In this document: positions 1-18,943 of the stretch, piece by piece | Layout of the letters: each line of letters begins with the position of its first letter | How positions within the stretch are numbered: position 1 is the first letter of the stretch | From: a virus | Lineage: Duplodnaviria > Heunggongvirae > Uroviricota > Caudoviricetes | Reading direction: 5' to 3' (one strand) | Virus record (IMG/VR): IMGVR_UViG_2585427734_000004 | DNA length: 22,017 bases | Position numbers and translations under genes: made by a program | Notes under the pieces: model-generated | What the model saw: only the letters and a program-made list of their open reading frames with translations | What the model was told of the DNA's origin: nothing | Database searches by the model: none

Positions 1-1053
1 TTACGGGGTAATACCAACCGCTGCCGCCACTTTGTCGCCACTTGGCAGCGTTGCCAGAGGATTGAAACGGAGCGCCGTTTCCAGATGATCCGGTGCCAGA
101 TGAGCGTAACGCATAGTCATTTTTATATCGTGATGTCCGAGGATTTTTTGCAAAGCAAGGATATTTCCACCCGACATCATGAAATGCGCCGCAAACGTAT
201 GGCGCAGAACGTGTGTCAGTTGACCGCGAGGGAGCACGATTGACGTTTTTTCCATCACGGATAAAAATTGAAAATAGCAGTCTGTGAAGAAATTGAACCC
301 ATCAAGCGCCATGATCTCTTCGTAAAGCTCTTTACTGATAGGGATGCTTCTGTTTTTCTTCCCCTTCGTTCTTACAAAGGTAATTCGGTATTTGGTCACC
401 TGTGAGCGGGTAAGATTTACGGCTTCTCGCCAGCGTGCGCCTGTGCTTAAGCATATCTTAACTACCAGTGCCAGAATTGGGTCCTGACGTTTGCAATCAG
501 CCAGTAATTCAACAATCTGCTCATGGGTAAGCCATGCCATCTCTTTTTCTGCGATGGTGAATTTTCGCATGTTCTCCAGTGGGTTCGGATACGACCATTC
601 GCCCAGGCGGGATAGTTCGCTAAAAACACTACTTAGATAGCTTTGCTCCAGGTTAATGGTGACCGGGCTTGCTCCTTTCTTCCATTTCTCGCTGAAGTAG
701 ATCTCACCTGTCAGGCGTTTATCTCGATAGTGGGCAAACATTTTAGAGGTTAGATCAGTTGCAAGGGGATTGCCCAGAGCGTCAACCATCAGCAGCAATT
801 TGTCATAGACATGCTGCCCAGCTGTCAGTGATTTACCATGTAGTTTGAACCATAGCTCAACCACGTCTTTCAGTGTTCGACGATCCACTGATTCACCTAG
901 CCAGGGCTTTGCTTCGGTTTCTTCCATCGTGTGACGCTCAAAAGCCAGTGCTTCGCCTTTGGTGGCGAATTGTTTACGCACACGACGCCCACTTCGTCCG
1001 GCGGGGTAACATTCGCAAAGCCATTTCCCTGTGGTGAGTTTTCGTACTGCCAT
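1..1053 (-). CDS. int: Tyrosine recombinase / phage integrase
   Basis: Minus-strand ORF with C-terminal HVLRHTFAAHF...GHHDIKMTMRYAHL (R, HxxR and Y catalytic box). Start set at internal ATG 1053 (MAVRKLTTGKW...), which has a GGAGGG RBS 9 nt upstream; the 402-aa track ORF is an upstream in-frame extension. Confidence 0.9.
   Translation of the reverse strand: MAVRKLTTGKWLCECYPAGRSGRRVRKQFATKGEALAFERHTMEETEAKPWLGESVDRRTLKDVVELWFKLHGKSLTAGQHVYDKLLLMVDALGNPLATDLTSKMFAHYRDKRLTGEIYFSEKWKKGASPVTINLEQSYLSSVFSELSRLGEWSYPNPLENMRKFTIAEKEMAWLTHEQIVELLADCKRQDPILALVVKICLSTGARWREAVNLTRSQVTKYRITFVRTKGKKNRSIPISKELYEEIMALDGFNFFTDCYFQFLSVMEKTSIVLPRGQLTHVLRHTFAAHFMMSGGNILALQKILGHHDIKMTMRYAHLAPDHLETALRFNPLATLPSGDKVAAAVGITP
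19..40. repeat. Putative attL core (cgctgccgccactttgtcgcca)
   Basis: 21 of 22 positions identical to 19163-19184 in direct orientation. Lies inside the 3' end of int, which is common when int abuts attP. Confidence 0.55.
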
Positions 1054-1241
1054 AAAAAATGCCCTCCAGTGGAGAGCATTTTTACTGTATACATAACCAG
1101 TGTCAATGTATGAAATCCTACGACCATACATCTCACTGAAGCCATAATGAAGTTGGCTATTCTTTTTGCTATGTGAGCATGTAACTTTTGCGGTTAACCT
1201 GCGGCTCATTTTTATTTTAGACGCAGATATAAAAACAAAAG

Positions 1242-1433
1242 TTATCGTGAGTTTTTAGTACAGATTTTTTTGGATTTACTAATAGTTCCATCATTGCAAA
1301 CGAATTTGCCATCTGAGGTACAGTGAGAAACACCTCCCTTTTTCCCTGAGCAGGGATAATTTCTAGCATAGGTAGTTAGTGGGTTTAATAACAAAGAACA
1401 TGACAAAACCACAAAAAATACCTTACCAAGCAT
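1242..1433 (-). CDS. Small secreted cysteine-rich protein (63 aa), hypothetical moron
   Basis: GGGAGG RBS 7 nt upstream of the ATG; N-terminal hydrophobic signal-like segment ([23 protein letters not shown]) followed by 6 Cys; AT-rich, unlike the flanking phage genes. Confidence 0.45.
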
Positions 1434-1448
1434 AGTTTCCTCCCGGTA

Positions 1449-2105
1449 CTATTTAACATACTTGACTGTTAAACTTATAATTTTACCAATTATTTCAATG
1501 TCTTCTATCTTGCATTCGAAGGCTCTGTTTCCACCCTCGACGAAGATTCTTCCACCGGGTAAACGAGTAATGTCACGGATCGTTATTTCGCCATCAATAC
1601 TTATTACCCATTTACCATCACGTATATCATCAAATTCTTTATCACAAATAAATTCAGAATTGTTATCTGTGATGACAAAAGGTTTTTTAAACGTAGAGGG
1701 TAGAAATCCCTTATCAAAAATATAAAAACCGTCTTTCTGCAATGCTCCATCAGACAATAAATATTTTTCTACTTCTATAGTATTTGTATTTGCTGATGCT
1801 TGCTTTGAACCATGCCCTGTTGTTAGCCAATTAAGCGAGGTGCCCGTTTCAAGGGCGCACTGGATTACCCAATCTGCTGGAAAAATATCACGCATATAGC
1901 GCGTTGCCATGGTGCTCTTAGAAACACCTAAATGATCACAGAGAGCCTGACGAGTACCGAACCCATATGCTTCAACTAAACGTTCTATGGCTTTCTTACC
2001 GCCGCTATTGAAATCCACAAGTCCTCCAAAGAAATCCAAAATTCGTTGACAGATTCCAAAAGCGATCTTAAAGTTGAACCAGAAGTGTTCTTTTGGAGCC
2101 TTCAC
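1449..2105 (-). CDS. CI-like immunity repressor (HTH)
   Basis: Transcribed divergently from the early operon, directly upstream of int as in phage 186. HTH-like segment QALCDHLGVSKSTMATRYMRD. Apparent GTG start at 2105. Confidence 0.7.
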   Translation of the reverse strand: MKAPKEHFWFNFKIAFGICQRILDFFGGLVDFNSGGKKAIERLVEAYGFGTRQALCDHLGVSKSTMATRYMRDIFPADWVIQCALETGTSLNWLTTGHGSKQASANTNTIEVEKYLLSDGALQKDGFYIFDKGFLPSTFKKPFVITDNNSEFICDKEFDDIRDGKWVISIDGEITIRDITRLPGGRIFVEGGNRAFECKIEDIEIIGKIISLTVKYVK

Positions 2106-2163
2106 TACTAATCACGACAAACAACGGCTCGCCAAAAGCCATATCTAGAAGGAATGTTGCCTT
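2106..2163. promoter_or_regulatory. Divergent lysis-lysogeny switch region (repressor vs early operon)
   Basis: 58-bp intergenic region between divergent cI-like and apl/cox-like starts; operators not resolved. Confidence 0.4.
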
Positions 2164-2367
2164 ATGACACCTAACATTTCAATTACTCTGAATACACCAC
2201 ATGTCACAATCGAACGTTATAGCGAACTGACTGGCCTTTCTATTGATACGATTAACGACATGTTGGCTGATGGCCGACTACCTCGTCATCGTCTTCGTAA
2301 AGACAAAAAACGTGAAAAGGTAATGATTAACCTGGCTGCTCTGACTGTTGATGCTTTGTCTGCTTAA
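2164..2367 (+). CDS. Apl/Cox-like small DNA-binding regulator / excisionase
   Basis: 67-aa basic protein, first gene of the rightward early operon opposite the repressor. Assignment is by position and size. Confidence 0.55.
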
Positions 2368-2431
2368 TAGACGTCTATTTTCGCAATAAGACGCTGAGTT
2401 CGATTTTGCGATAAGTTCGGAGTTGAAAACC

Positions 2432-2941
2432 ATGTTTGATTACCAAGTTTCCAAACATCCACATTTTGATGAAGCCTGTCGTGCATTCGCACTGCGCCAC
2501 AATCTGGTGCAACTGGCAGAACGTGCGGGCATGAATGTGCAGATTCTGCGGAACAAGCTGAACCCAGCTCAACCTCATTTATTAACCGCACCAGAAATCT
2601 GGCTGCTTACCGATCTGACTGAAGATTCAACGTTGGTAGATGGTTTTCTGGCACAGATTCATTGTCTGCCATGTGTACCGATTAATGAGGTAGCAAAAGA
2701 GAAACTGCCACATTACGTCATGAGTGCAACCGCAGAGATCGGGCGTGTTGCTGCAGGTGCGGTATCTGGCGATGTAAAAACCAGTGCAGGTCGTCGTGAT
2801 GCTATCAGCAGCATTAACTCTGTAACACGACTGATGGCGCTGGCGGCTGTTTCATTGCAGGCCCGTTTACAGGCTAATCCTGCGATGGCGAGTGCAGTTG
2901 ATACCGTGACTGGCCTCGGTGCTTCATTCGGTTTGCTGTGA
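2432..2941 (+). CDS. CII-like regulatory protein
   Basis: ORF after apl; ATG at 2432 with GGAG RBS (the track start at 2423 is TTG). Position and size match 186 CII. Confidence 0.55.
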
Positions 2942-2948
2942 GGTGCTT

Positions 2949-3245
2949 ATGCTGACGAAAGAACCATCATTTGCATCGCTGCTGGTAAAACAAAGCCCGG
3001 CAATGCACTACGGTCACGGCTGGATCATGGGTGAGGATGGTAAACGCTGGCATCCGTGCCGTTCACAAGATGAATTGCTGTCTGAATTGACCACGGGGAA
3101 ACGGAGAAAGTCAAAATGTATGCAGCGGAAAGTGAAGTGGATTATCAGTTTCGTTACAGAGGGGAGAGTTATTCAGTACCTGAAGATGATTTGCTCTGTT
3201 GTTATCCGTCGTTGTCGGGCGATGGCAGTTACTTTTTCACGCTAA
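2949..3245 (+). CDS. Hypothetical early protein (its 3' part overlaps the next ORF in another frame)
   Basis: ATG 2949 with GTGAGG RBS. The first ~55 aa look protein-like; the remainder overlaps ORF 3116-3340 and looks like an out-of-frame read. Confidence 0.3.
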   Translation: MLTKEPSFASLLVKQSPAMHYGHGWIMGEDGKRWHPCRSQDELLSELTTGKRRKSKCMQRKVKWIISFVTEGRVIQYLKMICSVVIRRCRAMAVTFSR

Positions 3246-3340
3246 AGGATGGGACGTTTTTACGGGGAGAGCAGGTTAAAGAGACGATACGAAAAAATGT
3301 ATCTCCTCTTGAACGTTACCGTAAGAACAAAGAACGATAG
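3116..3340 (+). CDS. Hypothetical small acidic early protein
   Basis: 74-aa ORF with GGAG upstream and natural composition; sits where fil/orf78-like genes lie in P2/186. Confidence 0.45.
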   Translation: MYAAESEVDYQFRYRGESYSVPEDDLLCCYPSLSGDGSYFFTLKDGTFLRGEQVKETIRKNVSPLERYRKNKER

Positions 3341-3362
3341 TTGCGTTTTGGGGATATGAATT

Positions 3363-3704
3363 ATGGCAATTAATGGCGCTGCGGCGACTGTTCCATTAAG
3401 CCCCGGTGAACGCCTGAATGGACTTAATCACATTGCGGAGTTAAGGGCGAAAGTTTTTGGCCTGAATATTGAGTCAGAGCTTGAGCGGTTTATTAAAGAT
3501 ATGCGTGATCCACGGGATATCAATAGCGAACAAAATAAACGGGCACTGGCTGCCATATTCTTTATGGCAAAAATTCCAGCTGAACGTCATAGCATCAGCA
3601 TTAATGAGCTGACCACTGACGAAAAGCGGGAGTTGATTAAAGCAATGAATCATTTTCGTGCAGTGGTGAGCTTATTTCCCAGACGGCTAACCATGCCGAA
3701 TTAA
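3363..3704 (+). CDS. Hypothetical phage early protein
   Basis: 113-aa ORF with RBS, in the same operon. Confidence 0.55.
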   Translation: MAINGAAATVPLSPGERLNGLNHIAELRAKVFGLNIESELERFIKDMRDPRDINSEQNKRALAAIFFMAKIPAERHSISINELTTDEKRELIKAMNHFRAVVSLFPRRLTMPN

Positions 3705-3771
3705 CCAGCTAATGAAATTAATGGCGTAAACCCGCCGGGCATCCCTTTATCTAAATTCAGGAGAATTGATT

Positions 3772-4005
3772 ATGCGTAATATTGAAACCCTCACGACTAA
3801 AACCGGACCGGATGACGCAGGGCTTAATATTTTACTGACAGAGGCTCGTCTGGAAGAACGCCGGGCAAGGGCTGAAGCAATGGCTGCCCGCCTTGATAGT
3901 CTTGCGTGTCATATCACATCCCGCCAGCTAAACCACGTCGAAGCGGCAGAACTGCTGCGTGTGACCGCTGAAGCAATCCAGAACGAAGCGCAGGAGATCC
4001 ACTAA
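3772..4005 (+). CDS. Hypothetical phage protein (DUF2732-like)
   Basis: ATG 3772 preceded by CAGGAG; helical, Ala/Glu-rich small protein; its stop overlaps the next start (TAATG). Confidence 0.55.
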   Translation: MRNIETLTTKTGPDDAGLNILLTEARLEERRARAEAMAARLDSLACHITSRQLNHVEAAELLRVTAEAIQNEAQEIH

Positions 4006-4232
4006 TGGCTGATGCAATGGATCTCGTACAGCAGCGCGTTGAAGAAGAACGCCAGCGCCATATCCGTGCTGCCCGTGCCAAAACACCGGGCGTGTCTCGC
4101 GTGCTTTGCATTGAATGTGATGCGCCAATTCCGCCAGCACGCCGCCGCGCCATTCCAGGAGTGCAGCTTTGCATTACCTGTCAGGAAATCGCAGAGCTGA
4201 AAGGCAAACATTACGACGGAGGTGCTGTATGA
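4005..4232 (+). CDS. TraR/DksA-family C4 zinc-finger protein
   Basis: C-terminal CIECDAPIP...x17...CITCQ pair of CxxC motifs; typical P2 orf82-like position just before gene A. Confidence 0.75.
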
Positions 4233-4531
4233 CAGGGGCTGTGCGTATCCATCAATTAAAAATTGCACCTAAGTATTTCAACGCTGTGGTTGCAGGTCAA
4301 AAGACGGCTGAACTTCGTAAAGACGATCGTGGCTATAAAGTTGGTGATGTTCTTTCTCTTTGCGAATGGAAGCATGGCGTATTTACGGGTAGGGAATGGG
4401 CCGCGGTTATCTCTCATGTGCTTCCGGTTAATGACGTGATGGCAGTTTCAGAACAATGGGTGATGCTATCAATTCGCTCATTAACCCCATTAGAAGCTTT
4501 AGGATATGTTATTGCAGGAGGTGCTGTATGA
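4229..4531 (+). CDS. DUF3850 / ASCH-like (PUA-fold) protein
   Basis: N-terminus [33 protein letters not shown] resembles the DUF3850 signature; ATG overlaps the upstream stop (ATGA). Confidence 0.6.
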
Positions 4532-5385
4532 GCACCATCCTGAAATGGGCGGGTAATAAAACCACCATTATGTCCGAACTGAAAAAATACCTTCCTGCTG
4601 GCACGCGACTGGTTGAACCTTTCGCGGGTTCTTGTGCTGTGATGATGGAGACGGATTACCCCAGCTATCTGGTTGCGGATATTAATCCTGATTTAATCAA
4701 CCTCTATAAAAAGGTTGCTGCTGATTGTGAGGCGTTTATATCTCGTGCCAGAGCTTTATTTGAGGAAGCAAACAGAGAGGTGGCTTATTACAACATAAGG
4801 CAGGAGTTTAATTACTCCACTGAAATTACTGATTTCATGAAAGCGGTATATTTTCTGTATCTCAATCGTCATGGTTACCGTGGGCTATGTCGCTATAACA
4901 AGAGCGGGTATTTCAACATTCCCTACGGTAATTATAAAAATCCGTATTTCCCTGAAAAAGAAATTCGCGCATTTGCAGAGAAAGCCCAGCGGGCAACGTT
5001 TATCTGCGCCAGCTTTGATGAAACGCTGGCGATGTTGAAGGCGGGGGATGTGGTGTATTGCGATCCGCCTTATGACGGTACGTTTTCCGGCTATCACACT
5101 GATGGCTTCACTGAAGATGACCAGTATCACCTGGCATCCGTTCTTGAACATCGATCATCTGAAGGTCATCCGGTCATTGTTTCTAACAGTGACACATCCC
5201 TGATCCGTTCGCTGTATCGCAATTTTACTCACCACTACATCAAGGCAAAACGCAGCATCGGCGTGGCAGCTGGTGAGAGTAAATCTGCAACAGAAATCAT
5301 CGCTGTTTCCGGGCCGCGCTGCTGGGTAGGATTTGATCCTTCGCGTGGCGTGGATTGTTCCGTCGTGTACGGAGTGCGTGCATGA
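4528..5385 (+). CDS. dam: DNA adenine methyltransferase (Dam-like, N6-adenine MTase)
   Basis: LKWAGNK...[12 protein letters not shown]-binding motif and DPPY catalytic motif; start overlaps the upstream stop. Confidence 0.85.
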
Positions 5386-7796
5386 GCCATGCTGATATGA
5401 ACAACTGCAGCGGCTTTAACGAGGTCGCCGCAGCATTCTCATGGAACAGCCCGAAAAAGGCCATTAACCCTTATCTGGACCCGGCGGAAGTTGCGCCGGT
5501 TTCTGCGCTTTCAAACCTGATCACTCTGTACGCTGCCGATAACGAGCAGGAACAACTGCGCCGCGAGGCACTGAGTGATCAGGTCTGGGAGCGTTATTTC
5601 TTTAATGAATCCCGTGATCCTGTCCAACGCGAAATGGAGCAGGATAAGCTAATTAGCCGGGCAAAGCTGGCGCATGAGCAGCAGCGTTTTAATCCAGACA
5701 TGGCCATTCTGGCGGACGTCAACGCCCAGCCTTCCCATATCAGCAAGCCGCTGATGCAACGTATTAAATACTTCAGCAGCCTGGGCAGGCCAAAGGCTTA
5801 TTCCCGCTATTTGCGTGAGACGATTAAGCCATGCTTGGAACGACTGGAGCATGTACGCGACAGTCAGCTATCCACTTCTTTTCGCTTTATGGCAAGCCAT
5901 GAAGGGCTGGACGGCCTGCTGATCCTGCCTGAAATGAGTCAGGATCAGGTGAAACGCCTGTCCACCTTGGTAGCTGCGCATATGAGCATGTGCCTTGATA
6001 CAGCTTGTGGCGATTTGTATGCCACCGATGATGTTACGCCAGAAGAAATCCGCAAGACATGGGAAAAGGTGGCAGCGGAAACCCTGCGTCTGGATGTTAT
6101 CCCGCCTGCGTTTGAGCAACTCTGTCGGAAAAGAAACCGCCGTAAACCCGTGCCTTATGAACTCATTCCGGGTTCGCTGGCGCGTATGTTATGCGCCGAC
6201 TGGTGGTATCGGAAATTATGGAAGATGCGTTGCGAATGGCGGGAAGAGCAGTTGCGTGCTGTTTGCCTGGTCAGCAAAAAAGCATCTCCCTATGTCAGCT
6301 ATGAAGCTGTGATGCATAAACGTGAGCAGCGCCGTAAGTCGCTGGAGTTTTTCCGTTCTCATGAACTGGTGAACGAAGACGGCGACACGCTGGATATGGA
6401 AGACGTGGTAAACGCCAGCAGCAGCAACCCTGCGCATCGCCGCAATGAGATGATGGCCTGTGTTAAAGGTCTGGAGCTTATCGCGGAAATGCGTGGTGAC
6501 TGCGCCGTTTTCTACACCATCACCTGTCCGTCACGTTTCCATTCCACGCTAAATAACGGCAGGCCCAACCCGACCTGGACAAATGCGACGGTAAGACAAA
6601 GCAGTGATTATCTGGTCGGTATGTTTGCTGCATTTCGTAAGGCGATGCACAAAGCCGGATTACGCTGGTATGGCGTGCGGGTGGCTGAGCCGCATCATGA
6701 CGGTACAGTTCACTGGCACCTGTTGTGTTTTATGCGCAAAAAAGATCGCCGCGCCATTACTGCTTTGTTGCGTAAGTTTGCCATTCGTGAAGACCGCGAG
6801 GAGCTGGGTAATAACACGGAACCACGCTTTAAGTCTGAGCTGATAAACCCGCGCAAAGGTACGCCAACAAGCTACATCGCGAAATACATCAGTAAGAACA
6901 TTGACGGGCGTGGTCTGGCTGGCGAGATCAGCAAGGAAACGGGTAAATCCCTGCGTGATAACGCCGAATACGTTAATGTCTGGGCGTCTCTGCATCGTGT
7001 TCAGCAATTCCGCTTCTTTGGCATTCCGGGGCGTCAGGCTTACCGTGAACTGCGATTGCTGGCTGGTCAGGCGGCAAGGCAACAGGGTGACAAAAAAGCA
7101 GGTGCGCCGGTACTGGATAACCCGCGTCTTGATGCCATTCTGGCTGCTGCGGATGCTGGTTGTTTTGCCACCTACATCATGAAGCAGGGCGGCGTACTGG
7201 TTCCCCGTAAATATCACCTCATCAGAACCGCTTATGAAATCAACGAAGAGCCGACCGCCTATGGCGATCACGGCATTCGTATTTATGGCATCTGGTCACC
7301 CATTGCAGAGGGCAAGATCTGCACTCATGCAGTGAAGTGGAAAATGGTTCGTAAAGCCGTTGACGTTCAGGAGGCGGCAGCCGACCAGGGCGCTTGCGCC
7401 CCTTGGACTCGTGGCAATAACTGTCCCCTTGCTGAAAATTTGAACCAACAGGAGAAAGATAAATCAGCTGATGGGGACACTAGAACGGACATTACCCGCA
7501 TGGATGACAAGGAGTTGCACGATTACCTGCACAGTATGAGCAAAAAAGAGCGCCGGGAACTGGCAGCAAGGTTACGCCAGGTGAAGCCGAAAAGGCGTAA
7601 AGACTACAAACAGCGAATTACAGATCATCAGCATCAGCAGCTCGTCTATGAACTGAAGTCCAGAGGATTTGATGGCAGCGAGAAAGAGGTCGATTTACTC
7701 CTTCGCGGTGGCAGTATTCCGTCAGGAGCAGGCCTGCGTATCTTCTATCGGAACCAGCGTTTGCAGGAAGATGATAAGTGGCGGAACCTGTATTAA
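5382..7796 (+). CDS. A: Replication initiation protein gpA (rolling-circle, HUH endonuclease)
   Basis: ~804-aa ORF. HUH-like VHWHLL motif and paired tyrosines SYIAKYISK, as in P2 gpA; start ATG 5382 overlaps the dam stop. Confidence 0.85.
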
Positions 7797-7888
7797 TTAC
7801 GCAGGTTAACAATTCGTGCTCTTAATAATACCAGGCATATCAGGCTGATGAACGTAAAAAAACGTTTTACATCAGTAAGATTATTATA

Positions 7889-7908
7889 TACTGTAAATAT
7901 AAACAGTG
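7889..7908 (+). promoter_or_regulatory. LexA (SOS) box TACTGTAAATATAAACAGTG
   Basis: CTGT-N8-ACAG with an AT-rich spacer, in an AT-rich promoter region about 40 bp upstream of the ORF at 7950. Confidence 0.65.
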
Positions 7909-7949
7909 GTTATGTATACAGTATTGCTTGTGGTGTTATAGGAGGAAAG

Positions 7950-8138
7950 ATGCAGGACTATTTTTTGGAGTCTTTGAAGCTCCAGCGCATTGATTTTTTT
8001 CTTAAGCTTGTAGCGGCTAGTGAATGTAGTGATGAAGAGAAAGGGCTGGCTCTGCAGTGGGTTTCTGAACTGACAGATGAACTCATGGCAAAAATCAGAA
8101 CCCACGAATACAACCGCTCAATGGATGTCATCAGCTGA
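7950..8138 (+). CDS. SOS-controlled small protein, possible Tum-like antirepressor N-terminal part
   Basis: ATG 7950 with GGAGG RBS, downstream of the LexA box. 186 tum occupies this position after gene A; identity is inferred from position. Confidence 0.4.
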   Translation: MQDYFLESLKLQRIDFFLKLVAASECSDEEKGLALQWVSELTDELMAKIRTHEYNRSMDVIS

Positions 8139-8148
8139 GGTGACTTTT

Positions 8149-8382
8149 ATGCGCATTGAAATAATGATCGATAAAGAGCAGAAGATTAGCCAGTCTACCC
8201 TGGACGCCCTTGAATCCGAGCTTTACCGCAATCTGCGCCCCCTGTATCCCAAAACGGTAATTCGCATTCGCAAAGGTAGCTCTAACGGTGTGGAACTGAC
8301 CGGACTGCAACTGGACGAAGAAAGAAAACAAGTGATGAAAATTATGCAGAAAGTGTGGGAAGACGACAGCTGGCTGCATTAA
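8149..8382 (+). CDS. DinI-like protein
   Basis: MRIEIMIDKEQ...LDALESEL...VWEDDSWLH follows the E. coli DinI pattern (MRIEVTIAK...IDALAGEL...TWESADDW); GAGGTGA RBS. Confidence 0.8.
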   Translation: MRIEIMIDKEQKISQSTLDALESELYRNLRPLYPKTVIRIRKGSSNGVELTGLQLDEERKQVMKIMQKVWEDDSWLH

Positions 8383-8516
8383 GAAACGTTGCTGGCGTCT
8401 GAACTTGCTTCTGGCGCCAGCAAGGTTGAACAACGAGCCGTGCGAGGCGTTAGCTCTGTGGTGCATGTCTATGCCGCATGAGATCGCATGATCGTTTGAG
8501 GATCGTTTTTGCTAAG

Positions 8517-8540
8517 GCCCGCCAGAACTGTCGGGCTTTT
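8517..8540 (+). terminator. Weak intrinsic terminator-like hairpin
   Basis: gcccg-N10-cgggc followed by TTTT; short stem, so low confidence. Confidence 0.3.
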
Positions 8541-8585
8541 GCGTAGATCATGCAGGTGCATGAAAACCACTACATAAAGCGGGCA

Positions 8586-8605
8586 GGCGTGGCGGGGATA
8601 CGAGC
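8586..8605. other. Possible cos-site remnant
   Basis: GGCGTGGCGGGGA matches, from memory, the first 13 nt of the 186/P2 19-nt cohesive end; the next 6 nt diverge. Not verified against a reference. Confidence 0.3.
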
Positions 8606-8612
8606 GCGCGCC

Positions 8613-8641
8613 TTGCCTTATATCTATTTGTTCATTAAAAT
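8613..8641 (+). promoter_or_regulatory. Putative sigma70 promoter for the retron ncRNA/RT operon
   Basis: TTGCCT (8613-8618), 17-bp spacer, TAAAAT (8636-8641). Confidence 0.3.
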
Positions 8642-8647
8642 CATTAT

Positions 8648-8850
8648 GCTCTTTAGTGTAGGAACATTGGTTCCAGCCGGGTGATTAGCCAGGCTTAAAT
8701 TTATTGTCCGGTTTAGGGTTGCGAAAGACACAGATTTCTCCTTCGCATCCCTGCCCGGGGCAGATATGCGAAGGAGAAATCTGTGTCTTTCGCTGTCTTT
8801 AGTGAAGAGTCAAAGCGCTATGTAAAGTTGCATAGCGCTTTGGTTTTAAG
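8648..8850 (+). ncRNA. Candidate retron msr-msd non-coding RNA
   Basis: Structured non-coding region immediately 5' of the RT: small hairpin ggaac-attg-gttcc (8661-8674), the 73-nt perfect palindrome (8721-8793) and a 12-bp-stem hairpin (8811-8842). Boundaries and the a1/a2 repeats are not resolved. Confidence 0.5.
8721..8793. repeat. Perfect 28-bp inverted repeat with nested ctgccc/gggcag palindrome (73-nt hairpin)
   Basis: 8721-8748 gcgaaagacacagatttctccttcgcat is the exact reverse complement of 8766-8793; read directly from the sequence. Confidence 0.9.
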
Positions 8851-8859
8851 AGGGGTTAT

Positions 8860-9795
8860 ATGCAACTAACTTCTAAAATTATCAGTAAGTTTAATTATAA
8901 TAGATTAGCTTTCCAATTACTTTTAAATGAGGCCCCCAAAAAATATAAAGTTTATTATATTCCTAAACGTGGCGCAGGTTTTCGGGTGATAGCTCAGCCG
9001 ACAAAGGAACTAAAAAACGTACAGAGATTTATAGTATCTTTGCTACAGCCAAAGCTGCCTGTTCATCATAAGGCAATGGCATATGAATATAAAAAAAGTA
9101 TTAAAGATAATGCATTGTTGCATAAAGATAATAATTATATTCTTAAAATGGATTTTCAGAACTTCTTTAATAAAATTAAACCTGATATATTTTTCTCGAA
9201 ACTTGAGAACACAGGGCTGAAATTGGATTCATTTGATGAGAACACCCTACGTAATTTGCTTTTTTGGCGTCCGGGAAAAAAGAGAAGTACAACGTTGATA
9301 TTAAGTGTAGGGGCGCCAAGCTCACCATTTATTAGTAATTTTGTTATGTATGACTTTGACAAGAGTCTTGATGATTGGTGCCGTAACAATGGTATCACTT
9401 ATTCAAGGTATGCAGATGATATAACTTTTTCAACTAATATTAAGGATATATTGTGCAGGGTTCCTAAGGTGGTAAAAAAAATGTTGTCGCTCCATGTTCC
9501 CGGTCTATCAATCAATGAATCTAAAACAATTTTTACATCGATGGCTCATAATCGGCACGTGACTGGTGTAACACTTACACCTCAGGGCAATTTATCAATT
9601 GGTCGCGATCGTAAAAGGATGCTGTTTGCAAAGATTCATAAATATTCTTTGGGACTCTTATCTTCCGAAGAAATAAATAAAACCAAAGGGATGATTGCGT
9701 TTGCAAATTATTTGGAGGGTGATTTTTTATTAAGGTTACAAAAAAAATATGGTTGTGAGTTAATAACTAAGTTCCTGATGGAAGGAAACAAATAA
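8860..9795 (+). CDS. Retron-type reverse transcriptase
   Basis: 311 aa; YADD catalytic motif (SRYADDITFS), upstream FQNFFNKI, RT-like GAPSSPFISN; AAGAGGGG RBS; AT-rich codon usage. Confidence 0.85.
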   Translation: MQLTSKIISKFNYNRLAFQLLLNEAPKKYKVYYIPKRGAGFRVIAQPTKELKNVQRFIVSLLQPKLPVHHKAMAYEYKKSIKDNALLHKDNNYILKMDFQNFFNKIKPDIFFSKLENTGLKLDSFDENTLRNLLFWRPGKKRSTTLILSVGAPSSPFISNFVMYDFDKSLDDWCRNNGITYSRYADDITFSTNIKDILCRVPKVVKKMLSLHVPGLSINESKTIFTSMAHNRHVTGVTLTPQGNLSIGRDRKRMLFAKIHKYSLGLLSSEEINKTKGMIAFANYLEGDFLLRLQKKYGCELITKFLMEGNK

Positions 9796-11429
9796 TGATA
9801 AATAAAATGAATTTAGAGACTTGCTATGTTGATTTTTTAGAGTTGGAATCACATGTGATAAACGAGGATTATTTGAAGGAGTCTGTTGAGCTTCAAAAGC
9901 TAATATCTACTTTAAATGAGAGTAAGTTTCATTTAAATAAAATAGGTATACATGATTTTAAACGGATAAGAGAACTACAGATTTCCTTAGAAGATGATTT
10001 GACTGTTTTTGTCGGGGATAACGGATTCGGTAAAAGCACTATTTTGGATGCAATAGCAATTGTTTTGAGTTGGTTGAGATCAAATATTGAAAAGGAGAGT
10101 AAGCCTGGTACTTATATTAAAAGCCATGAAGTTAATAACTCTGTTGATGTTGAGTATGCATCAATTGATGCAAATATAAAACTTAAGGACTTTAATACCA
10201 GTATTTTGATTACTAAAGCGAAAGAGGGGGCATATTATTCTAGAAATAATGAATTGTTGGAGGTAAAAAAACTTGCAAGTATTTATAGACTTGTGAATAA
10301 ATATGTTGATAATGCAAGCTTGCCTTTGATGGCATATTATTCTATTGCGCGTTCTTATATAGGCGGTGGGGTTGATAGGAAAAGAAAAAATGCTAAAACT
10401 AAAACTGTATGGTCAAAATTCGATGTGTATGATGAAATCGAGTTTGACAGAAATGATTTTACCGATTTTTTTCAATGGCTTGTATTTCTTCATAACAGAG
10501 CTTCACAAGAGAAATTGAGTGAGTCACAAACGACAATCAATGCGTTATTTTCAGATATTCAAAGTTTGAAAGCAACATTAACTCAACTATCTGCGATTGA
10601 TAATATTGATTCAACAGTTATAAAAGGTTTAGAGCTTTCGCTTAAAGAAAAATTGAACTACATGAAATCTCTGCAATCAGGAGAACATAAGTTTAATAAT
10701 GCAGTATCACTTTATGATAGTGTTATAAATACCATTCTAAAGTTCTTGCCTGAATTTCAGTGGATTAAGCTTGTTTATGGTGATGATGATTATAAGATTA
10801 TCCTTAAAAAAGGAGAGGTTGAATTAGATGTTCAACAGTTGTCTCAAGGTGAGAAAACTATATTTACTTTAGTTGGTGATTTGGCTCGACGTTTAATTTT
10901 ACTTAATCCAAATTTATCTAATCCTCTATTGGGATATGGGATTGTTTTAATTGATGAAATTGATTTGCATTTGCATCCGCAATGGCAACAGACAATTATT
11001 GAGCGTTTGACATCTACATTCCCAAATGTTCAATTTGTAGTTACTACCCATAGCCCACAGGTTTTATCCACTGTTAGCTCTCGTTCAGTGCGTATTCTAC
11101 AGGAAGTGGAAGTAGATGGTGTTAATGATTTGATAGTGTCTCACCCCGACTATCAAATAAAAGGTGTTAGTAATCAGGATGCACTTTTATATGGAATGAG
11201 AACTGATCCTATACCCTCTACTAAAGAAAATGGTTGGCTTGAAGAATATAAAAAATTGGTTGAGCTTAATCGTTATAGCAGTGACGAGGCTCTTTTGTTA
11301 AGAGAAAAAGTTATTAAACATTTCGGATTAGACCATCCTTTAGTTCAAGAGTGTGATGATCTTATATCTGTTTTGGAGTTCAAAAATAAGATAAATCAGC
11401 ACTTTTCTGGAAGTAAGGATGTAAAATGA
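9795..11429 (+). CDS. ABC-type ATPase (Septu PtuA-like) retron effector component
   Basis: Walker A GDNGFGKST, signature LSQGEK, Walker B VLIDEIDLHLHP, H-loop VVTTHSP, with a long helical insert; start overlaps the RT stop. Confidence 0.8.
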   Translation: MINKMNLETCYVDFLELESHVINEDYLKESVELQKLISTLNESKFHLNKIGIHDFKRIRELQISLEDDLTVFVGDNGFGKSTILDAIAIVLSWLRSNIEKESKPGTYIKSHEVNNSVDVEYASIDANIKLKDFNTSILITKAKEGAYYSRNNELLEVKKLASIYRLVNKYVDNASLPLMAYYSIARSYIGGGVDRKRKNAKTKTVWSKFDVYDEIEFDRNDFTDFFQWLVFLHNRASQEKLSESQTTINALFSDIQSLKATLTQLSAIDNIDSTVIKGLELSLKEKLNYMKSLQSGEHKFNNAVSLYDSVINTILKFLPEFQWIKLVYGDDDYKIILKKGEVELDVQQLSQGEKTIFTLVGDLARRLILLNPNLSNPLLGYGIVLIDEIDLHLHPQWQQTIIERLTSTFPNVQFVVTTHSPQVLSTVSSRSVRILQEVEVDGVNDLIVSHPDYQIKGVSNQDALLYGMRTDPIPSTKENGWLEEYKKLVELNRYSSDEALLLREKVIKHFGLDHPLVQECDDLISVLEFKNKINQHFSGSKDVK

Positions 11430-12109
11430 AATATCTATCTAGGCAAATGCCAGGGCCTTCCGTTCTTAATAAATTTGACTATAGGAGGGATGATTGGAAT
11501 TCCCTATCATCAAATGATAAAAAAGAAATATGGGAAGAAATAATAAAAATGCAAGGTAAATTATGTGCTTATTGCGAGAAAAAAATAGAGCATCATAAAA
11601 GTGGTGACAAAAATAAAGTTGAGAGGCATATTGAGCATTTTTACAGGAAAAGTTATTACAAAAATTTAACTTTCGAGTGGTCTAATTTGTTTGGCTCATG
11701 TGGTGAGCCGCAAAGGTGTGGGTTTTATAAGGATAAGCAAAAATATAACGATGATGATTTAATTAAAGCTGATAGACAAAATCCAGATGTTTTTTTCCAT
11801 TTTTTGGAAAATGGTGATGTTCATATTAGAGAAGGCTTGAATGAGAAAGAACACAAAATGGCAGAGGTTACGTTAAGAGTATTTAACTTAAACCCGTCCT
11901 CAGGAGGAGTCAAGGCGGAAAGAAGACGTGCAATAGAATTAAGCATGACATTAATAAAGGAACTGGTCGGATGTGCATCTCAGCTTATTGAATCAGGATG
12001 TGAAATTGAAGATGTTAGATCTATGGTCTTTGATGAGTTTAAAAAGAATGTAAAAGATAGATGCTTTACCACTGCGATAAAGCATGTTTTTGAGAATAGA
12101 ATGCCTTAA
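11426..12109 (+). CDS. HNH endonuclease (PtuB-like) retron effector component
   Basis: CAYCEKK...HIEHF HNH-like Cys/His motifs; ATGA overlap with the ATPase stop. Confidence 0.75.
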   Translation: MKYLSRQMPGPSVLNKFDYRRDDWNSLSSNDKKEIWEEIIKMQGKLCAYCEKKIEHHKSGDKNKVERHIEHFYRKSYYKNLTFEWSNLFGSCGEPQRCGFYKDKQKYNDDDLIKADRQNPDVFFHFLENGDVHIREGLNEKEHKMAEVTLRVFNLNPSSGGVKAERRRAIELSMTLIKELVGCASQLIESGCEIEDVRSMVFDEFKKNVKDRCFTTAIKHVFENRMP

Positions 12110-12190
12110 AGGTTAGAGGGATGTATATATAATTAATCTATATTATATTCTGAGAAATTGATAATATGCATCCCTATCCACTGATTAAAT

Positions 12191-12652
12191 TCATGGATTT
12201 TTTTTTTGTAGAGGTACTAATTCATTTGTCACAAAAACCTTACTAGCTTTCTCCACATCCCCAAACCCCCCAACATTATTCGGCATAATCCCCATCATTT
12301 GCGGCGGCACACGGTGTGCCGCCATCATGTCGTCCCGGCTCACGTTCTTGATATTCAGAAATTCATCCTTCGCTGCAACTTCTGACAACGGGATGATCTG
12401 AAGCCCGTCCTTTTTGCCGTTAGGCGAGTACATAAACAAGTTACGGAAGTTGCCCGGTCCTTTGGCGCTTTTCATCGCGTTGCGGAGGTTGTTCACATCC
12501 TCCTGGTTCTGCGCGGCGTCAGTCATATACATGATGAAGCCTGCATGACTGCCGTTAATGTAATACTTGCGGCGGAACAGCGTGGCGGACTCGTTGAGCA
12601 GGGCTGACGGAATGGCAGAAAGATAAGTTTTTTCTAACGGAGCACGGCTCAT
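12191..12652 (-). pseudogene. Capsid portal (gpQ-like) C-terminal fragment; terminase gene absent
   Basis: Minus-strand ORF whose 5' end overlaps the O start codon, leaving no P-O intergenic promoter; no Walker A, so not a terminase N-terminus. The Q assignment is by position and elimination. Confidence 0.35.
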
Positions 12653-13484
12653 GACAGTGAAAGCAAAGCGTTTTCGCATCGGGGTGGAAGGTGCCACCAC
12701 CGACGGACGCGAAATCCAGCGTGAATGGCTGGAACAGATGGCAGCCAGCTACAACCCGGCGGTGTACACCGCGCTGATTAACCTTGAGCACATCAAGTCT
12801 TATCTGCCGGACAGCACCTTTAACCGCTACGGCAAGGTGACGGCGCTGTTTGCTGAAGAAATCACGGAAGGTCCGCTGGCAGGCAAGATGGCATTGTATG
12901 CCGACGTTGAGCCAACGGAGTCCCTGGTGGAACTGGTGAAAAAAGGCCAGAAATTATTCACCTCTATGGAAGTCAGCCCGAAGTTCGCTGATACGGGCAA
13001 AGCCTCCCTGGTTGGCCTGGCCGCCACTGATGATCCCGCCAGTCTGGGTACGGAAATGCTGACATTCAGCGCCAGTGCAGCCCATACCCCGCTGGCAAAC
13101 CGCAAGCAGAATCCCGCCAATCTTTTTACCGCTGCAGAGGAAACGGTGATCGAACTGGAAGAAATCCAGGAGGACAAGCCGTCCCTGTTTGCCCGTGTCA
13201 CGGCGCTGTTTACCAAAAAAGAGCAGTCCGATGACGCCCGGTTCTCTGATGTGCATAAGGCCGTGGAGCTGGTCGCCACTGAGCAGCAGAACCTGAGCGC
13301 ACGCACCGAAAAATCCCTGTCTGAGCAGGAAGAACGCCTGTCTGAGCTGGAGACTGCTCTGCAGGAGCAGCAAACCGCCTTAAACGAACTGGTGAATAAG
13401 CTGAGTCATGAAGACAGCCGCCAGGACTACCGCCAGCGTGCAACAGGCGGTAACGCCCCCGCTGACACTCTGACCAATTGCTGA
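12651..13484 (+). CDS. O: Capsid scaffolding protein gpO
   Basis: N-terminus FRIGVEGATTDGREIQ...INLEH...SMEVSPKFADTGK...LVGLAATDDPASLGTE matches recalled P2 gpO (FRIGVEGDTCDGR...INLEH...LVGLAVTDDPASLGTE). Confidence 0.8.
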   Translation: MTVKAKRFRIGVEGATTDGREIQREWLEQMAASYNPAVYTALINLEHIKSYLPDSTFNRYGKVTALFAEEITEGPLAGKMALYADVEPTESLVELVKKGQKLFTSMEVSPKFADTGKASLVGLAATDDPASLGTEMLTFSASAAHTPLANRKQNPANLFTAAEETVIELEEIQEDKPSLFARVTALFTKKEQSDDARFSDVHKAVELVATEQQNLSARTEKSLSEQEERLSELETALQEQQTALNELVNKLSHEDSRQDYRQRATGGNAPADTLTNC

Positions 13485-13500
13485 TGGAGCACAAAACCTG

Positions 13501-13890
13501 ATGAAGAAGAATACCCGCTTTGCTTTTAACGCTTACCTGCAGCAACTGGCACGTCTGAACGGTGTGGCAGTTGAAGAACTGTCCAGCAAGTTCACTGTAG
13601 AGCCGTCTGTGCAGCAGACGCTGGAAGACCAGATCCAGCAGTCCGCCGCTTTCCTGACGCTGATTAACGTCACGCCAGTGCCTGAGCAGTCCGGTCAGCT
13701 GCTGGGGCTGGGTGTTGGCAGCACCATTGCCGGAACCACTGACACCACCGCGAAAGAGCGTGAACCTGTCGATCCGACGCTGATGGTCGATGTGGAATAC
13801 AAATGCGAACAGACCAACTTTGACACGGTGCTGACCTACGCGAAGCTGGACCTGTGGATCAGGCAACGCCGCGCACTAACGGTGATCTGA
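13501..13890 (+). pseudogene. N: Major capsid protein gpN, N-terminal ~120 aa only
   Basis: TRFAFNAYL...NGV...SKKFTVEPSV...LDLW matches the recalled P2 gpN N-terminus (TRFKFNAYL...KKFTVEPSV...LDLW), then diverges and stops; full gpN is ~357 aa. Confidence 0.6.
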
Positions 13891-13974
13891 ACGCGTTGCT
13901 GGATGAAACGGAGGCCGCCTGGGCGGTCTGTGCAGACAAAGTGGACATGATTATTGCGTGTCAGGAGCGAAACA

Positions 13975-14406
13975 GTGAACAAACCACAATCCCTGCGCCA
14001 CGCCCTCAATAAAGCAGTGCCTTATGTCCGCAATAACCCGGACAAACTGCATCTGTTTGTGGATAACGGTTCGCTGGTTGCCACGGGGGCCAGCTCCATG
14101 TCATGGGAGTACCGCTATACCCTGAACGTGGTGATTGAGGATTTCAGCGGCGACCAGAATCTGCTGATGGCCCCGGTTTTGCTGTGGCTGCGGGATAATC
14201 AGCCTGATGCCATCAATAACCCGGCGTTACGGGAAAAGTTATTCACCTTTGAGGTGGATATTCTGCGCAATGATGTCTGTGATATCAGCCTTAACCTGCA
14301 ACTGACGGAGCGTGTGCTGGTCAGCACTGATGGCAGTGTGTCGAGTGTTGAAGCTGTAGCGGAACCCGATGAACCTGAAGAAATGTGGACGGTGAAACGT
14401 GGCTGA
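13975..14406 (+). CDS. R: Tail completion protein gpR
   Basis: GTG 13975 with AGGAG RBS; KPQSLRHALNKAV...NPDKLHLFVDNGS...LWLRDNQPD resembles recalled P2 gpR (KPDSLRRALTDAV...NPDMLRIFVDNGS...AWLRENQPD). Confidence 0.7.
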   Translation: MNKPQSLRHALNKAVPYVRNNPDKLHLFVDNGSLVATGASSMSWEYRYTLNVVIEDFSGDQNLLMAPVLLWLRDNQPDAINNPALREKLFTFEVDILRNDVCDISLNLQLTERVLVSTDGSVSSVEAVAEPDEPEEMWTVKRG

Positions 14407-14845
14407 ATTGCAGAAGGTGGACGGCTGGTTGAGTGCCTTGCTGGCGAATCTGGAGCCAGCCGCAAGAAGCCGTATGATGCGCCAGCTGGCGCAAGAACTG
14501 CGCCGGACACAGCAGCAGAACATCAGGATGCAGCGCAATCCAGATGGCAGTAGTTATGAGCCGCGCAGAGTAACAGCACGCAGCAAAAAGGGGCGCATCA
14601 AACGTCAGATGTTTGCAAAGCTGCGCACCAAAAAATACCTGAAAACTGCCGCCAGCGCCGATTCTGCCAGCGTGCAGTTTGAAGGTAAGGTGCAGCGCAT
14701 TGCCCGCGTTCATCACTACGGCCTGCGTGATCGTGTTAGTCGTAAGGGGCCGGAGGTACGTTATGCTGAGCGGCGGCTATTGGGTTTCAACGATGAAGCT
14801 ACTCTTCAAATTAAGACAATTTTATCTAGTTACTTAATGGGGTGA
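14399..14845 (+). CDS. S: Tail completion / virion morphogenesis protein gpS
   Basis: GTG start overlapping the R stop; LEPAARSRMMRQLAQELRRTQQQNI...PDGS...GRIKRQMFAKLR...IARVHHYG fits the gpS virion-morphogenesis family pattern. The 3' end runs into AT-rich insert sequence. Confidence 0.7.
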   Translation: MAELQKVDGWLSALLANLEPAARSRMMRQLAQELRRTQQQNIRMQRNPDGSSYEPRRVTARSKKGRIKRQMFAKLRTKKYLKTAASADSASVQFEGKVQRIARVHHYGLRDRVSRKGPEVRYAERRLLGFNDEATLQIKTILSSYLMG

Positions 14846-14937
14846 AGATTCATGCTTTTGCTAGCTTCTACAAGGTTTTATGCTTCTAAACACTGTATGT
14901 TTAATTTGACATATAACTATTTGTACAAGCGGTGAGT

Positions 14938-16161
14938 ATGAAAAAGCAAGATGAGTCCCCCAAAGCTGATAAATCAAATTTAGATAAAAGTGAGTCTGAA
15001 CCACCAAAAGCGAACTCTATGGCAGATGCCATGGCCATAGCGGCAGAGGTTGCTACGACAGCAACGTCAGTTCAAACATCAACCTTTGCAATTATCGCGG
15101 ATTTTCTACGTTCAGGTGGTATAGAAAAACTAACTTCAAATGCTATCAAAAATTTAGAAATAAAAGTAAAGGGCCATTCTCAAGCGACAAGAACTACGGT
15201 ATTGAGGAACCTGAAGACCTCTTTCAAAGAGGAGAATTTAGTTCTTGTTTTAGGTGCTGGCATTTCTTTAGATTACAGCATACCAACATGGAGTGAATTA
15301 TTAAAGCGGCTATTGGCAAGAGCTTTGGATGATAAAAATGAAAATCAGAAAATGGTATCGGTTTTGTTTAATGAGGTTTTCGGTCCGAACGCACTCATAG
15401 CAGCCAGATATCTAAAACTACACTTTGATGGTATTAATACTCCCTTGGAAAAAGAAATTCAGCATGTTTTGTATGAATATTATCAGGAGGAAGAAAGCAG
15501 TACATTGAAAGCAATCAAGAAATTGTGCATATCGGCAGGCAAGTCACCAGGTCTAGATTCCGTTATTACATATAACTATGATGATATTTTGGAACAGACA
15601 TTAACTAGAGCTGATGTTGGTATAAAGTATAAGGTGATTTCAAAGACGGGACAGCATGCAAAAAATGATGAACTGCCGATCTACCATGTGCATGGCTATC
15701 TCCCATTGCAGGGGAAAGTTGAACTCGATGACACGCTAGTCCTTTCTGATGAAAGCTATCATAGGCAATACATGGATTTATACCATTGGAGCAATATGGT
15801 TCAGTTGAATAAATTCAAAGATGGTAATTGCCTGTTTGTTGGTCATTCCTTTACAGATCCAAACCTCAGAAGGTTGATGGATACAGCCAAAAAACTTAGA
15901 GGGAATGATTCTAAACCTCATTATTTAATTAAGTGTAGACATTCGAAAGAAGATGTGATTGCTAATATTCAAAGAATTGTTAGTGACTCAAGAAATGGAT
16001 TTGATAATAAACTGAATATTAATGAGGATGCAATCGCGACCTCTCTTTTACAGACAGTGCATACTTTTGAAGAAATCGATGCTAATTCATTTGGCGTGAA
16101 TGTTATTTGGATCGACTCTTACGATGAGATTGCACCAATACTTAATGATCTAACACAATAA
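14938..16161 (+). CDS. SIR2-family (SIR2_2-like) protein, candidate NAD+-depleting defence effector
   Basis: LVLVLGAGISLDYSIPTWSELL (GAGxS), VITYNYDDILEQ (TxNYD) and PIYHVHGYL (HxHG) motifs; low-complexity K/E/S/A/T-rich N-terminal ~90 aa; AT-rich gene in a GC-rich tail cluster. Start could also be GTG 14932 or ATG 15019. Confidence 0.75.
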   Translation: MKKQDESPKADKSNLDKSESEPPKANSMADAMAIAAEVATTATSVQTSTFAIIADFLRSGGIEKLTSNAIKNLEIKVKGHSQATRTTVLRNLKTSFKEENLVLVLGAGISLDYSIPTWSELLKRLLARALDDKNENQKMVSVLFNEVFGPNALIAARYLKLHFDGINTPLEKEIQHVLYEYYQEEESSTLKAIKKLCISAGKSPGLDSVITYNYDDILEQTLTRADVGIKYKVISKTGQHAKNDELPIYHVHGYLPLQGKVELDDTLVLSDESYHRQYMDLYHWSNMVQLNKFKDGNCLFVGHSFTDPNLRRLMDTAKKLRGNDSKPHYLIKCRHSKEDVIANIQRIVSDSRNGFDNKLNINEDAIATSLLQTVHTFEEIDANSFGVNVIWIDSYDEIAPILNDLTQ

Positions 16162-16238
16162 TCTCCCTAAGTTGTGCCAGAAATGGCACAGCTTTAAATC
16201 CTATCCTAATGACGGCAGCATTTGGCAATCTAATTGCC

Positions 16239-16454
16239 ATGAACGCTCAACTAACAGAAATCATGCGCCTTATCACCAATCTGATCCGCACTGGTGTAGT
16301 CACCGAAGTGGACCGGGAAAACTGGCTTTGTCGGGTGAAAACGGGCGACCTTGAAACCAACTGGATTAACTGGCTGACACTGCGCGCGGGCAAATCGCGC
16401 ACCTGGTGGAAAACTCACCATCGACTACGACTACACGCCAGTGCCGCCACTTGA
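16239..16454 (+). pseudogene. V: Baseplate spike gpV, N-terminal fragment
   Basis: [42 protein letters not shown] matches the recalled P2 gpV N-terminus (IRTGIIVETD...CRVQTG...WLQWLTHRAGRSRTWW), then diverges after ~60 aa and stops. Confidence 0.55.
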
Positions 16455-16524
16455 AAATCTGATGCTGCGCCAGCGCATCACCGATCAGTACCTGGTGAAT
16501 TTCGCAAGCCAGGTCAGCGCGTAA
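16387..16524 (+). pseudogene. Possible tail sheath (FI) C-terminal fragment
   Basis: A second frame reads ...[36 protein letters not shown] and stops 10 bp before the FII start with an RBS, the geometry expected for the end of FI. Identity is inferred from position only. Confidence 0.3.
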
Positions 16525-16533
16525 GGGGACAAC

Positions 16534-17049: not shown

Positions 17050-17103
17050 TGTATCTGAACGGCGCGGGATACCGCGCCAGAACCCAATTTACAGGACAAC
17101 AAA

Positions 17104-17406: not shown

Positions 17407-17420
17407 CGGTTGACGATCTG

Positions 17421-18853: not shown

Positions 18854-18943
18854 TTCTTCGCAATGGAGAACTTTTAAGTTTTCAAAATGGAATAATGCGG
18901 TATCATTATTGTGAATTTAGCAAAAATGGGGAGAACTCGAAAA

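Follow-up and report, generated by a model that had tools for sequence, protein, structure and literature searches.

What role does a small two-gene unit behind a LexA box play next to the replication gene of a P2-family prophage? The question is raised by a 22,017-nucleotide (nt) stretch of DNA from a virus of the Caudoviricetes (IMG/VR record IMGVR_UViG_2585427734_000004), referred to here as the window. An original prediction, made from the letters of the sequence, viewed the unit as a possible split or remodelled form of the tum antirepressor locus of phage 186, linking the SOS response to prophage derepression or to modulation of RecA. The sequence comparisons reported here support this split-tum interpretation. 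We read the region as the SOS operon of a Fels-2-like, 186-type prophage of the P2 family, which is silenced by LexA and whose first product, TumA, would act as an antirepressor on the CI repressor, while the second, TumB, would modulate the SOS response. The probability we give to this reading is roughly 0.82. The unit is already known in kind: it is an ordinary representative of a system that has been published and annotated and that includes tumA-tumB of Fels-2 and PSP3 and tum of 186.

The unit lies directly after replication gene A, beyond the immunity region, and begins 70 nt past the gene A stop codon. Phages 186, PSP3 and Fels-2 are laid out alike, so the position is indeed that of the 186 tum locus. 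The features of the region are as follows, with open reading frames abbreviated ORF and protein lengths given in amino acids (aa).

5355-7796: replication gene A (Phage_GPA, E 5.7e-128)
7866-7871, plus strand: -35-like hexamer TTTACA of the predicted SOS promoter (equivalent of 186 p95), 17 nt before TACTGT (7889-7894)
7889-7908, plus strand: LexA box 1 (distal), TACTGTAAATATAAACAGTG, core 7891-7906, overlapping the -10 position
7904-7923, plus strand: LexA box 2 (proximal), CAGTGGTTATGTATACAGTA, core 7906-7921
7950-8138, plus strand: tumA (ORF1), 62 aa, ATG start, Shine-Dalgarno AGGAGG at 7940-7945, phrog_698, orthologue of Fels-2 STM2728, putative antirepressor type
8149-8382, plus strand: tumB (ORF2), 77 aa, ATG start, Shine-Dalgarno GAGGTG at 8137-8142, DinI family

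The two genes are separated by 10 nt. Their starts are 199 nt apart and they are therefore read in different frames, which agrees with the earlier description of a 62-aa ORF in another frame than its neighbor. The start of tumA is located 41 nt past LexA box 1.

The CTGT-N8-ACAG site that drew attention to the locus is present ahead of ORF1 at 7889-7908, in a single copy. Its core (7891-7906) is the one occurrence of this motif in the 22 kb, against a chance expectation of 0.28 per window. Over its entire 20 nt, TACTGTAAATATAAACAGTG, the box agrees with the LexA consensus, TACTGTATATATATACAGTA, in 17 of 20 positions, and no equally close match was seen in 100 shuffles of the window. It could still be argued that an AT-rich palindrome has arisen here by accident and that transcription of the two ORFs is constitutive or continues from gene A. 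A generic sigma-70 promoter scan, which called no promoter at the tumA operator, would fit this view, but the missing call is explained by TACTGT, a weak -10 element that matches TATAAT in three of six positions. With 0 matches of this quality expected by chance, we regard a fortuitous box as extremely improbable, and two further lines of evidence speak against it.

The first is conservation. Forty related loci, from about 40 enterobacterial species, were retrieved with the closer ORF1-family alignment; the ORF1 homologues of these other-species loci, together with the window, Fels-2 and one phage, provided 42 distinct upstream regions. A LexA box occurs in 41 of the 42 (core perfect in 32, one base off in 9) and keeps its position while the flanks diverge. 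All 41 box-bearing regions have a TT(T/C)ACA-like hexamer 16-18 nt ahead of the box. Since the flanks are otherwise poorly conserved, this argues for selection on the geometry of hexamer and box. The same geometry is annotated for promoter p95 of 186 (NC_001317), where TTCACA is followed after 18 nt by TACTGT; in the window, too, TACTGT, the first six bases of box 1, occupies the -10 position. The second line is expression of the orthologous operon, which is induced by DNA damage. In a microarray study of Fels-2-positive Salmonella, operon STM2726-STM2727-STM2728 responded to the mutagen MX (PMC2225428). STM2727, which by its position would be the DinI-like gene, was up 5.5-, 11.1- and 14.8-fold with MX and had the lowest legible p-value in the table of the LexA regulon (PMC2225428). 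Judged by its sequence and conservation, box 1 is a real LexA site and no chance match, and a LexA operator lying over the promoter is predicted.

The original prediction overlooked a second box, CAGTGGTTATGTATACAGTA, whose 16-nt core shares one base with that of box 1. With GTGG in place of CTGT its left half-site is weak, and by hand count the 20-mer agrees with the consensus in 15 of 20 positions. Such double boxes are found in 26 of the 42 related upstream regions and single boxes in 15. A near-consensus distal box and a proximal box with a degenerate left half are the features of colicin-type operators, and by sequence the tumA operator is such a pair of overlapping SOS boxes. At colicin operators two LexA dimers bind, which leads to very tight repression (PMC2994835); by analogy with the colicin operons, the double box would be expected to give tighter and later induction of tumA-tumB.

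The likeness to colicin operators extends to the nucleotide level. When the 88-nt leader was compared with plasmids by blastn, matches were obtained in 227 records, and several of the best partial matches were small mobilizable plasmids with 86-88% identity over window positions 7883-7925. Two plasmid matches that were inspected (L046, 1501-1543; L047, 58-99) lie just upstream of the colicin N (cna) and cloacin genes. About 43 nt are shared with the colicin and cloacin operators, in the pattern TATACTGTA.ATA.AA.CAGTGGTTATGT.TACAGTATT, and the one-base overlap of the cores is shared likewise. The operons differ in their downstream genes, which encode a bacteriocin in one case and an antirepressor in the other, and their -35 regions and leaders are unlike. 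The identity between the tumA and Col plasmid operators exceeds what the constraint of LexA binding alone seems to require, and the promoter module may have been exchanged between phages and Col plasmids.

The second gene of the unit was called DinI-like, and this assignment held: ORF2 matches PF06183 along its entire length (profile positions 1-63 of 63) with E 6.6e-23 and 81.3 bits, against a gathering cutoff of 24.2. It aligns to residues 71-145 of 186 Tum (41% identity over 75 aa, E 3e-24), is 78% identical to PSP3 TumB, and finds the E. coli DinI structure 1GHH as a weak match (E 2.7e-6). Within phrog_189, a profile of 151 positions, ORF2 covers positions 71-148, and phrog_189 therefore includes fused proteins of Tum length. 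As in E. coli DinI, TumB is a full-length member of the family and keeps the conserved acidic/tryptophan C-terminal helix. TumB differs from DinI in being phage-borne and co-transcribed with an antirepressor, and its binding of RecA is putative.

TumA presented a more difficult case. ORF1 belongs to phrog_698 (E 3.6e-38), a family without an assigned function, and had no match in Pfam, among PDB sequences or in PADLOC. Its product is 98% identical to Fels-2 STM2728. An ungapped Smith-Waterman alignment places residues 7-41 on residues 7-41 of 186 Tum with a score of 57, compared with 24.9 +/- 4.2 for shuffled sequences (z about 7.7), and none of 5000 shuffles reached this score. We also compared profiles. 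Profile A3 represents the diverse ORF1 family collected in a search of 1.84 billion representatives, and profile A4 the first 70 residues of 186 Tum and its relatives. With hhalign, the two align at 96.6% probability (E 4.9e-10), residues 2-46 on 2-46, with the register kept. Their common pattern is E-x5-(Q/E)R(I/V)-x-(L/M/F)-x3-L-x5-C-x3-(D/E)(K/R)-x2-A(L/I)-x-(W/L)(I/V)(A/S)E(L/I). The upstream protein of PSP3, also named TumA, matches the profile of the 186 Tum N-terminal part at 82% probability (E 1e-5). On this sequence evidence, ORF1 is a diverged homologue of the half of 186 Tum that is not DinI-like. Alignment to 186 Tum and to E. coli DinI, proposed earlier as a check, thus found both ORFs related to Tum, ORF1 to its N-terminal and ORF2 to its C-terminal half, as expected for a split or remodelled tum; ORF2 in addition matches 1GHH.

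The ORF1 profile search gave 87 matches among the 1.84 billion representatives. Nearly all were stand-alone proteins of 50-75 aa, and no fused Tum-like protein was found at E <= 0.001. In the AlphaFold (AF2) model built on A3, TumA is a two-helix hairpin (helices 2-23 and 28-61) with a predicted local distance difference test score (pLDDT) of 89.7; when the model was compared with the PDB by Foldseek, every match was a generic helical hairpin with E > 1. Eight distant homologues (P0146, P0157, P0158, P0176, P0177, P0182, P0186 and P0188) share a C-terminal tail, K-(N/S)-P-x-x-G-G...G-x-(L/F)-Q, that is missing from TumA of the window.

The probable target of TumA is encoded on the opposite strand.

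1449-2105, minus strand: 186-type CI repressor, predicted target of TumA; the true start codon is probably near 2021

The protein has the domains Phage_CI_repr (PF07022, E 3.3e-31) and Phage_CI_C (PF16452, E 4.7e-29) and is 33% identical to 186 CI. No other Pfam family was detected in it at E <= 0.001, and no peptidase domain was found. A 186-type CI of this kind would therefore require an antirepressor for induction by the SOS response.

These elements suggest the following mechanism. In an undamaged cell, LexA would occupy the double operator (7889-7923), which lies over the -10 region (with the -35 hexamer at 7866-7871), and would silence tumA-tumB. Upon DNA damage, RecA-stimulated cleavage of LexA would free the promoter. 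TumA, as a 62-aa helical hairpin, would then bind the non-cleavable 186-type CI and block its binding to operators, so that the early lytic operon is derepressed. TumB, made from the same transcript, may modulate RecA and the SOS response, as do the short C-terminal Tum products of 186. What was observed directly is the anatomy of the sequence, homology to known proteins, a conserved operator and the type of the repressor. Damage induction is predicted from the literature on the Fels-2 orthologue and antirepressor activity from that on 186 Tum and PSP3 TumA, and by the same analogy TumA of the window would act on CI of the window.

Several observations weigh against this reading. The support for it combines the sequence described here with literature on orthologues, not on this exact element, and the left half-site of box 2 is poor. 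Pairwise BLASTP of TumA detects no similarity to 186 Tum or PSP3 TumA. The match of PSP3 TumA to the ORF1 family profile is weak (6.9% probability, E 0.005), so that TumA of the window is connected to the one split TumA with a functional test behind it by way of the 186 family. The prophage is a remnant left by deletions: its portal gene is a fragment, its capsid gene is truncated, and no terminase gene was found. Its derepression therefore cannot yield virions, although excision and replication functions could still be derepressed. Finally, a strictly cognate pair of antirepressor and repressor is expected to co-vary, and TumA and CI do not. In a Spearman test on pairwise identities (34 loci of the Fels-2-type family, 561 pairs), TumA and CI identity gave rho -0.10, with rho 0.135 for the N-terminal domain of CI (permutation p about 0.1) and -0.05 for the C-terminal domain. 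TumA proteins that are 100% identical even occur beside CI proteins that are 37-57% identical. CI of phage vB_EcoM-813R9 is 57% identical to that of the window. The expectation of a cognate, co-varying pair was thus not borne out.

The co-variation data bear on another possibility, that Fels-2-type TumA is SOS-induced and has a target other than CI, such as Apl/Cox, RecA or TumB. TumA identity does track the identity of gpA, CII and TumB (rho 0.65-0.74 for the 34 loci), and biochemical data on a Fels-2-type protein were not found in the searchable literature. On the other side stands the homology of TumA to the N-terminal half of 186 Tum, a published inhibitor of DNA binding by CI. Absence of co-variation neither proves nor excludes antirepressor activity, and the way in which CI varies offers a different account of it. 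Median pairwise identity among the CI proteins is 64% in the N-terminal DNA-binding domain and 34% in the C-terminal domain, so a conserved TumA could recognize a conserved surface. CI identity is uncorrelated also with that of CII and gpA (rho about 0), and the CI gene lies about 5-6 kb upstream of tumA (both in loci L002 and L006-L045); CI varies apart from CII and gpA and therefore appears to be a shuffled immunity module. Gifsy phages provide documented cases of an antirepressor acting on a repressor that is not its own (PMC3121763). As for TumB as the target, 19 of the 40 genomic loci with tumA have no tumB; TumA would therefore work without TumB, which is no obligate partner. We consider a target other than CI unlikely.

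The simplest way to reconcile TumA as a CI antirepressor with these data, by analogy with the Gifsy antirepressors, would be a broad-range TumA acting on a surface shared by the N-terminal domains of CI proteins. From this a more tentative proposal may be drawn, which we put forward as possible while thinking it rather less probable than the alternative that it is wrong. Fels-2-type TumA could be a generalist antirepressor that acts on the conserved N-terminal DNA-binding domain of many 186-type CI proteins; SOS-induced TumA, even from a remnant, could then cross-induce co-resident P2-like prophages of other immunity, and the colicin-type double operator, possibly acquired from Col plasmids, could restrict its firing to severe or prolonged damage.

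What follows tumB, and the state of the prophage as a whole, were analyzed next to the operon itself. The features between tumB and the end of the retron described below are these.

8389-8423, plus strand: stable hairpin right after the tumB stop codon, without a U-tract (minimum free energy and centroid folds)
8513-8548, plus strand: probable intrinsic terminator, GGCCCGCC...GUCGGGC then UUUU (RNA fold), ending the SOS operon
8613-8641: promoter-like site of the retron
8648-8712: retron msr (Rfam RF00170, 45.9 bits, below the gathering score)
8714-8851: STnc400-like segment (Rfam RF02058, 73 bits with a gathering score of 80, E 8.6e-14)
8860-9795: retron reverse transcriptase (PADLOC RT_I-A, E 4.9e-131)
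9795-11429: PtuA-like ATPase (PADLOC)
11426-12109: PtuB/HNH protein (PADLOC)

The terminator at 8513-8548 was not called by a pattern scan because its loop is over the limit of the scan. By eye, the PSP3 sequence suggests a similar hairpin after its tumB. A further hairpin at the tumA-tumB junction (8127-8144), which was flagged by the terminator scan and could sequester the Shine-Dalgarno sequence of tumB, was dismissed, as it is not conserved in relatives. Directly downstream of the SOS operon lies a complete type I-A retron (8613-12109), in the place of orf97 in 186 and Fels-2. STnc400 is a gammaproteobacterial small RNA family; its match falls between msr and the reverse transcriptase, at the expected position of msd, and the STnc400 family itself may be a retron msd.

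The prophage extends over about 19 kb (window 1-19044). Its left end is marked by int, its right part by gpD and a small ORF near the 19-kb point that may be ogr, and a host permease follows it. It is a defective remnant whose regulatory and replication region is intact. Besides the features above it contains the following.

12191-12700, minus strand: portal fragment, 169 aa
13501-13890: major capsid gene, truncated, 129 aa
14932-16161: ORF with a SIR2_2 domain, 409 aa, E 3.2e-20, inserted between gpS and FII

Terminase, sheath, tape-measure, baseplate, fibre and lysis genes were not found among the ORFs scanned, and the tail genes detected are a subset (gpR, gpS, tube, chaperone and gpD). The SIR2-like ORF is probably a second anti-phage cargo gene. 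On a contig of Escherichia sp. MOD1-EC7003 (NZ_PTRE01000033.1), CI, Apl, CII, gpA, TumA and TumB are 99-100% identical to those of the window, and this contig probably carries the same defective prophage.

An operon and operator that stay intact while the terminase gene is not found and portal and capsid genes survive as fragments might also be viewed as domesticated, that is, kept for tuning of the RecA/SOS response of the host or for LexA-controlled reading into the retron, and not for prophage induction. The type I-A retron in the place where Fels-2 and 186 have orf97, and the high conservation of TumB (78% identity to PSP3), fit this idea. But the cassette is at least 95% identical in intact phages of inducible type (vB_EcoM-813R9, Klebsiella phages and Fels-2), so that no special selection has to be assumed to explain it in the window. 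Furthermore, CI, apl/cox, cII and gene A are intact, so that the circuit of TumA is still there, and between tumB and the retron, which has a promoter-like site of its own, lie a hairpin and a terminator. Domestication therefore appears improbable to us, and the SOS-induced antirepressor operon remains the preferred reading.

The 604-bp tumA-tumB unit was found in 1125 of 5426 complete E. coli genomes. Among the matches listed, the RefSeq names are "DinI-like family protein" and, for the 62-aa gene, "hypothetical protein", a label that should be changed to tumA-type antirepressor. The biology is largely the textbook induction pathway of 186 and Fels-2, with little that is new, and it places a prophage remnant under the wiring of the SOS response. 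Beyond the known system, the analysis adds the colicin-type double operator, the decoupling of TumA from CI and the lack of tumB in about half of the loci. A conserved antirepressor combined with a shuffled repressor would allow cross-talk among P2-like prophages of different immunity, as in the Gifsy phages.

How, then, does the locus compare with its known relatives? Tum has been described as resembling an antirepressor fused to DinI, and in Fels-2 and PSP3 tum is split in two (Lemire et al. 2011, PMC3121763). Fels-2 is very close: its unit likewise follows gene A, TumA is 98% and TumB 100% identical (the latter by tblastn, corresponding to STM2726.1, with the record note "similar to TumB of PsP3"), box 1 is identical, and the double box, the 10-nt junction and a 186-type CI are shared. 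The differences are a CI with 38% identity, which points to another immunity type, an orf97-like gene of 732 bp after tumB instead of the type I-A retron, and an intact phage instead of a remnant.

PSP3 also has two genes after gene A behind a LexA box. Its record describes tumA as "similar to 5' end 186 tum; UV induction of prophage" and tumB as "similar to dinI and 3' end of 186 tum", and antirepressor activity is reported for the upstream gene (PMC3121763, which cites Bunny, Liu and Roth 2002). TumB is 78% identical to that of the window, whereas TumA is about 22% identical in a multiple alignment. PSP3 has a single LexA box, and its two ORFs are in one frame, a stop codon and 3 nt apart, whereas those of the window are in different frames with a 10-nt gap.

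Phage 186 shares the location, the LexA box on the -10 region, an N-terminal antirepressor-type segment followed by a C-terminal DinI-like segment, and the 186-type CI. It differs in that Tum is one fused polypeptide of 146 aa, so the earlier statement of a single larger protein with DinI similarity was correct, and in its single LexA box and the presence of orf97 as the next gene. The 186 record annotates p95, a LexA site, a full-length Tum that "inhibits CI DNA binding" and, nested within it in the same frame, three shorter products, of which the shortest (76 aa) is DinI-like and "modulates SOS induction". Internal starts thus yield the DinI-like part separately, functionally like tumB, and even 186 therefore makes a TumB-like protein on its own. 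Among close relatives of the N-terminal part of 186 Tum (at least 67% identity), many named matches are stand-alone "Tum protein" sequences of 63-78 aa. From these sequences, split and fused forms of tum evidently interconvert often.

A more distant parallel is provided by the dinI-gfoA/gftA operons of the Gifsy phages, which are LexA-controlled, lie outside the immunity region, and combine a DinI homologue with a small antirepressor that acts on a non-cleavable repressor (PMC3121763). They differ in that dinI comes first and in that the phages are lambdoid, with another family of repressor; according to the literature, their likeness to tum is one of operon logic.

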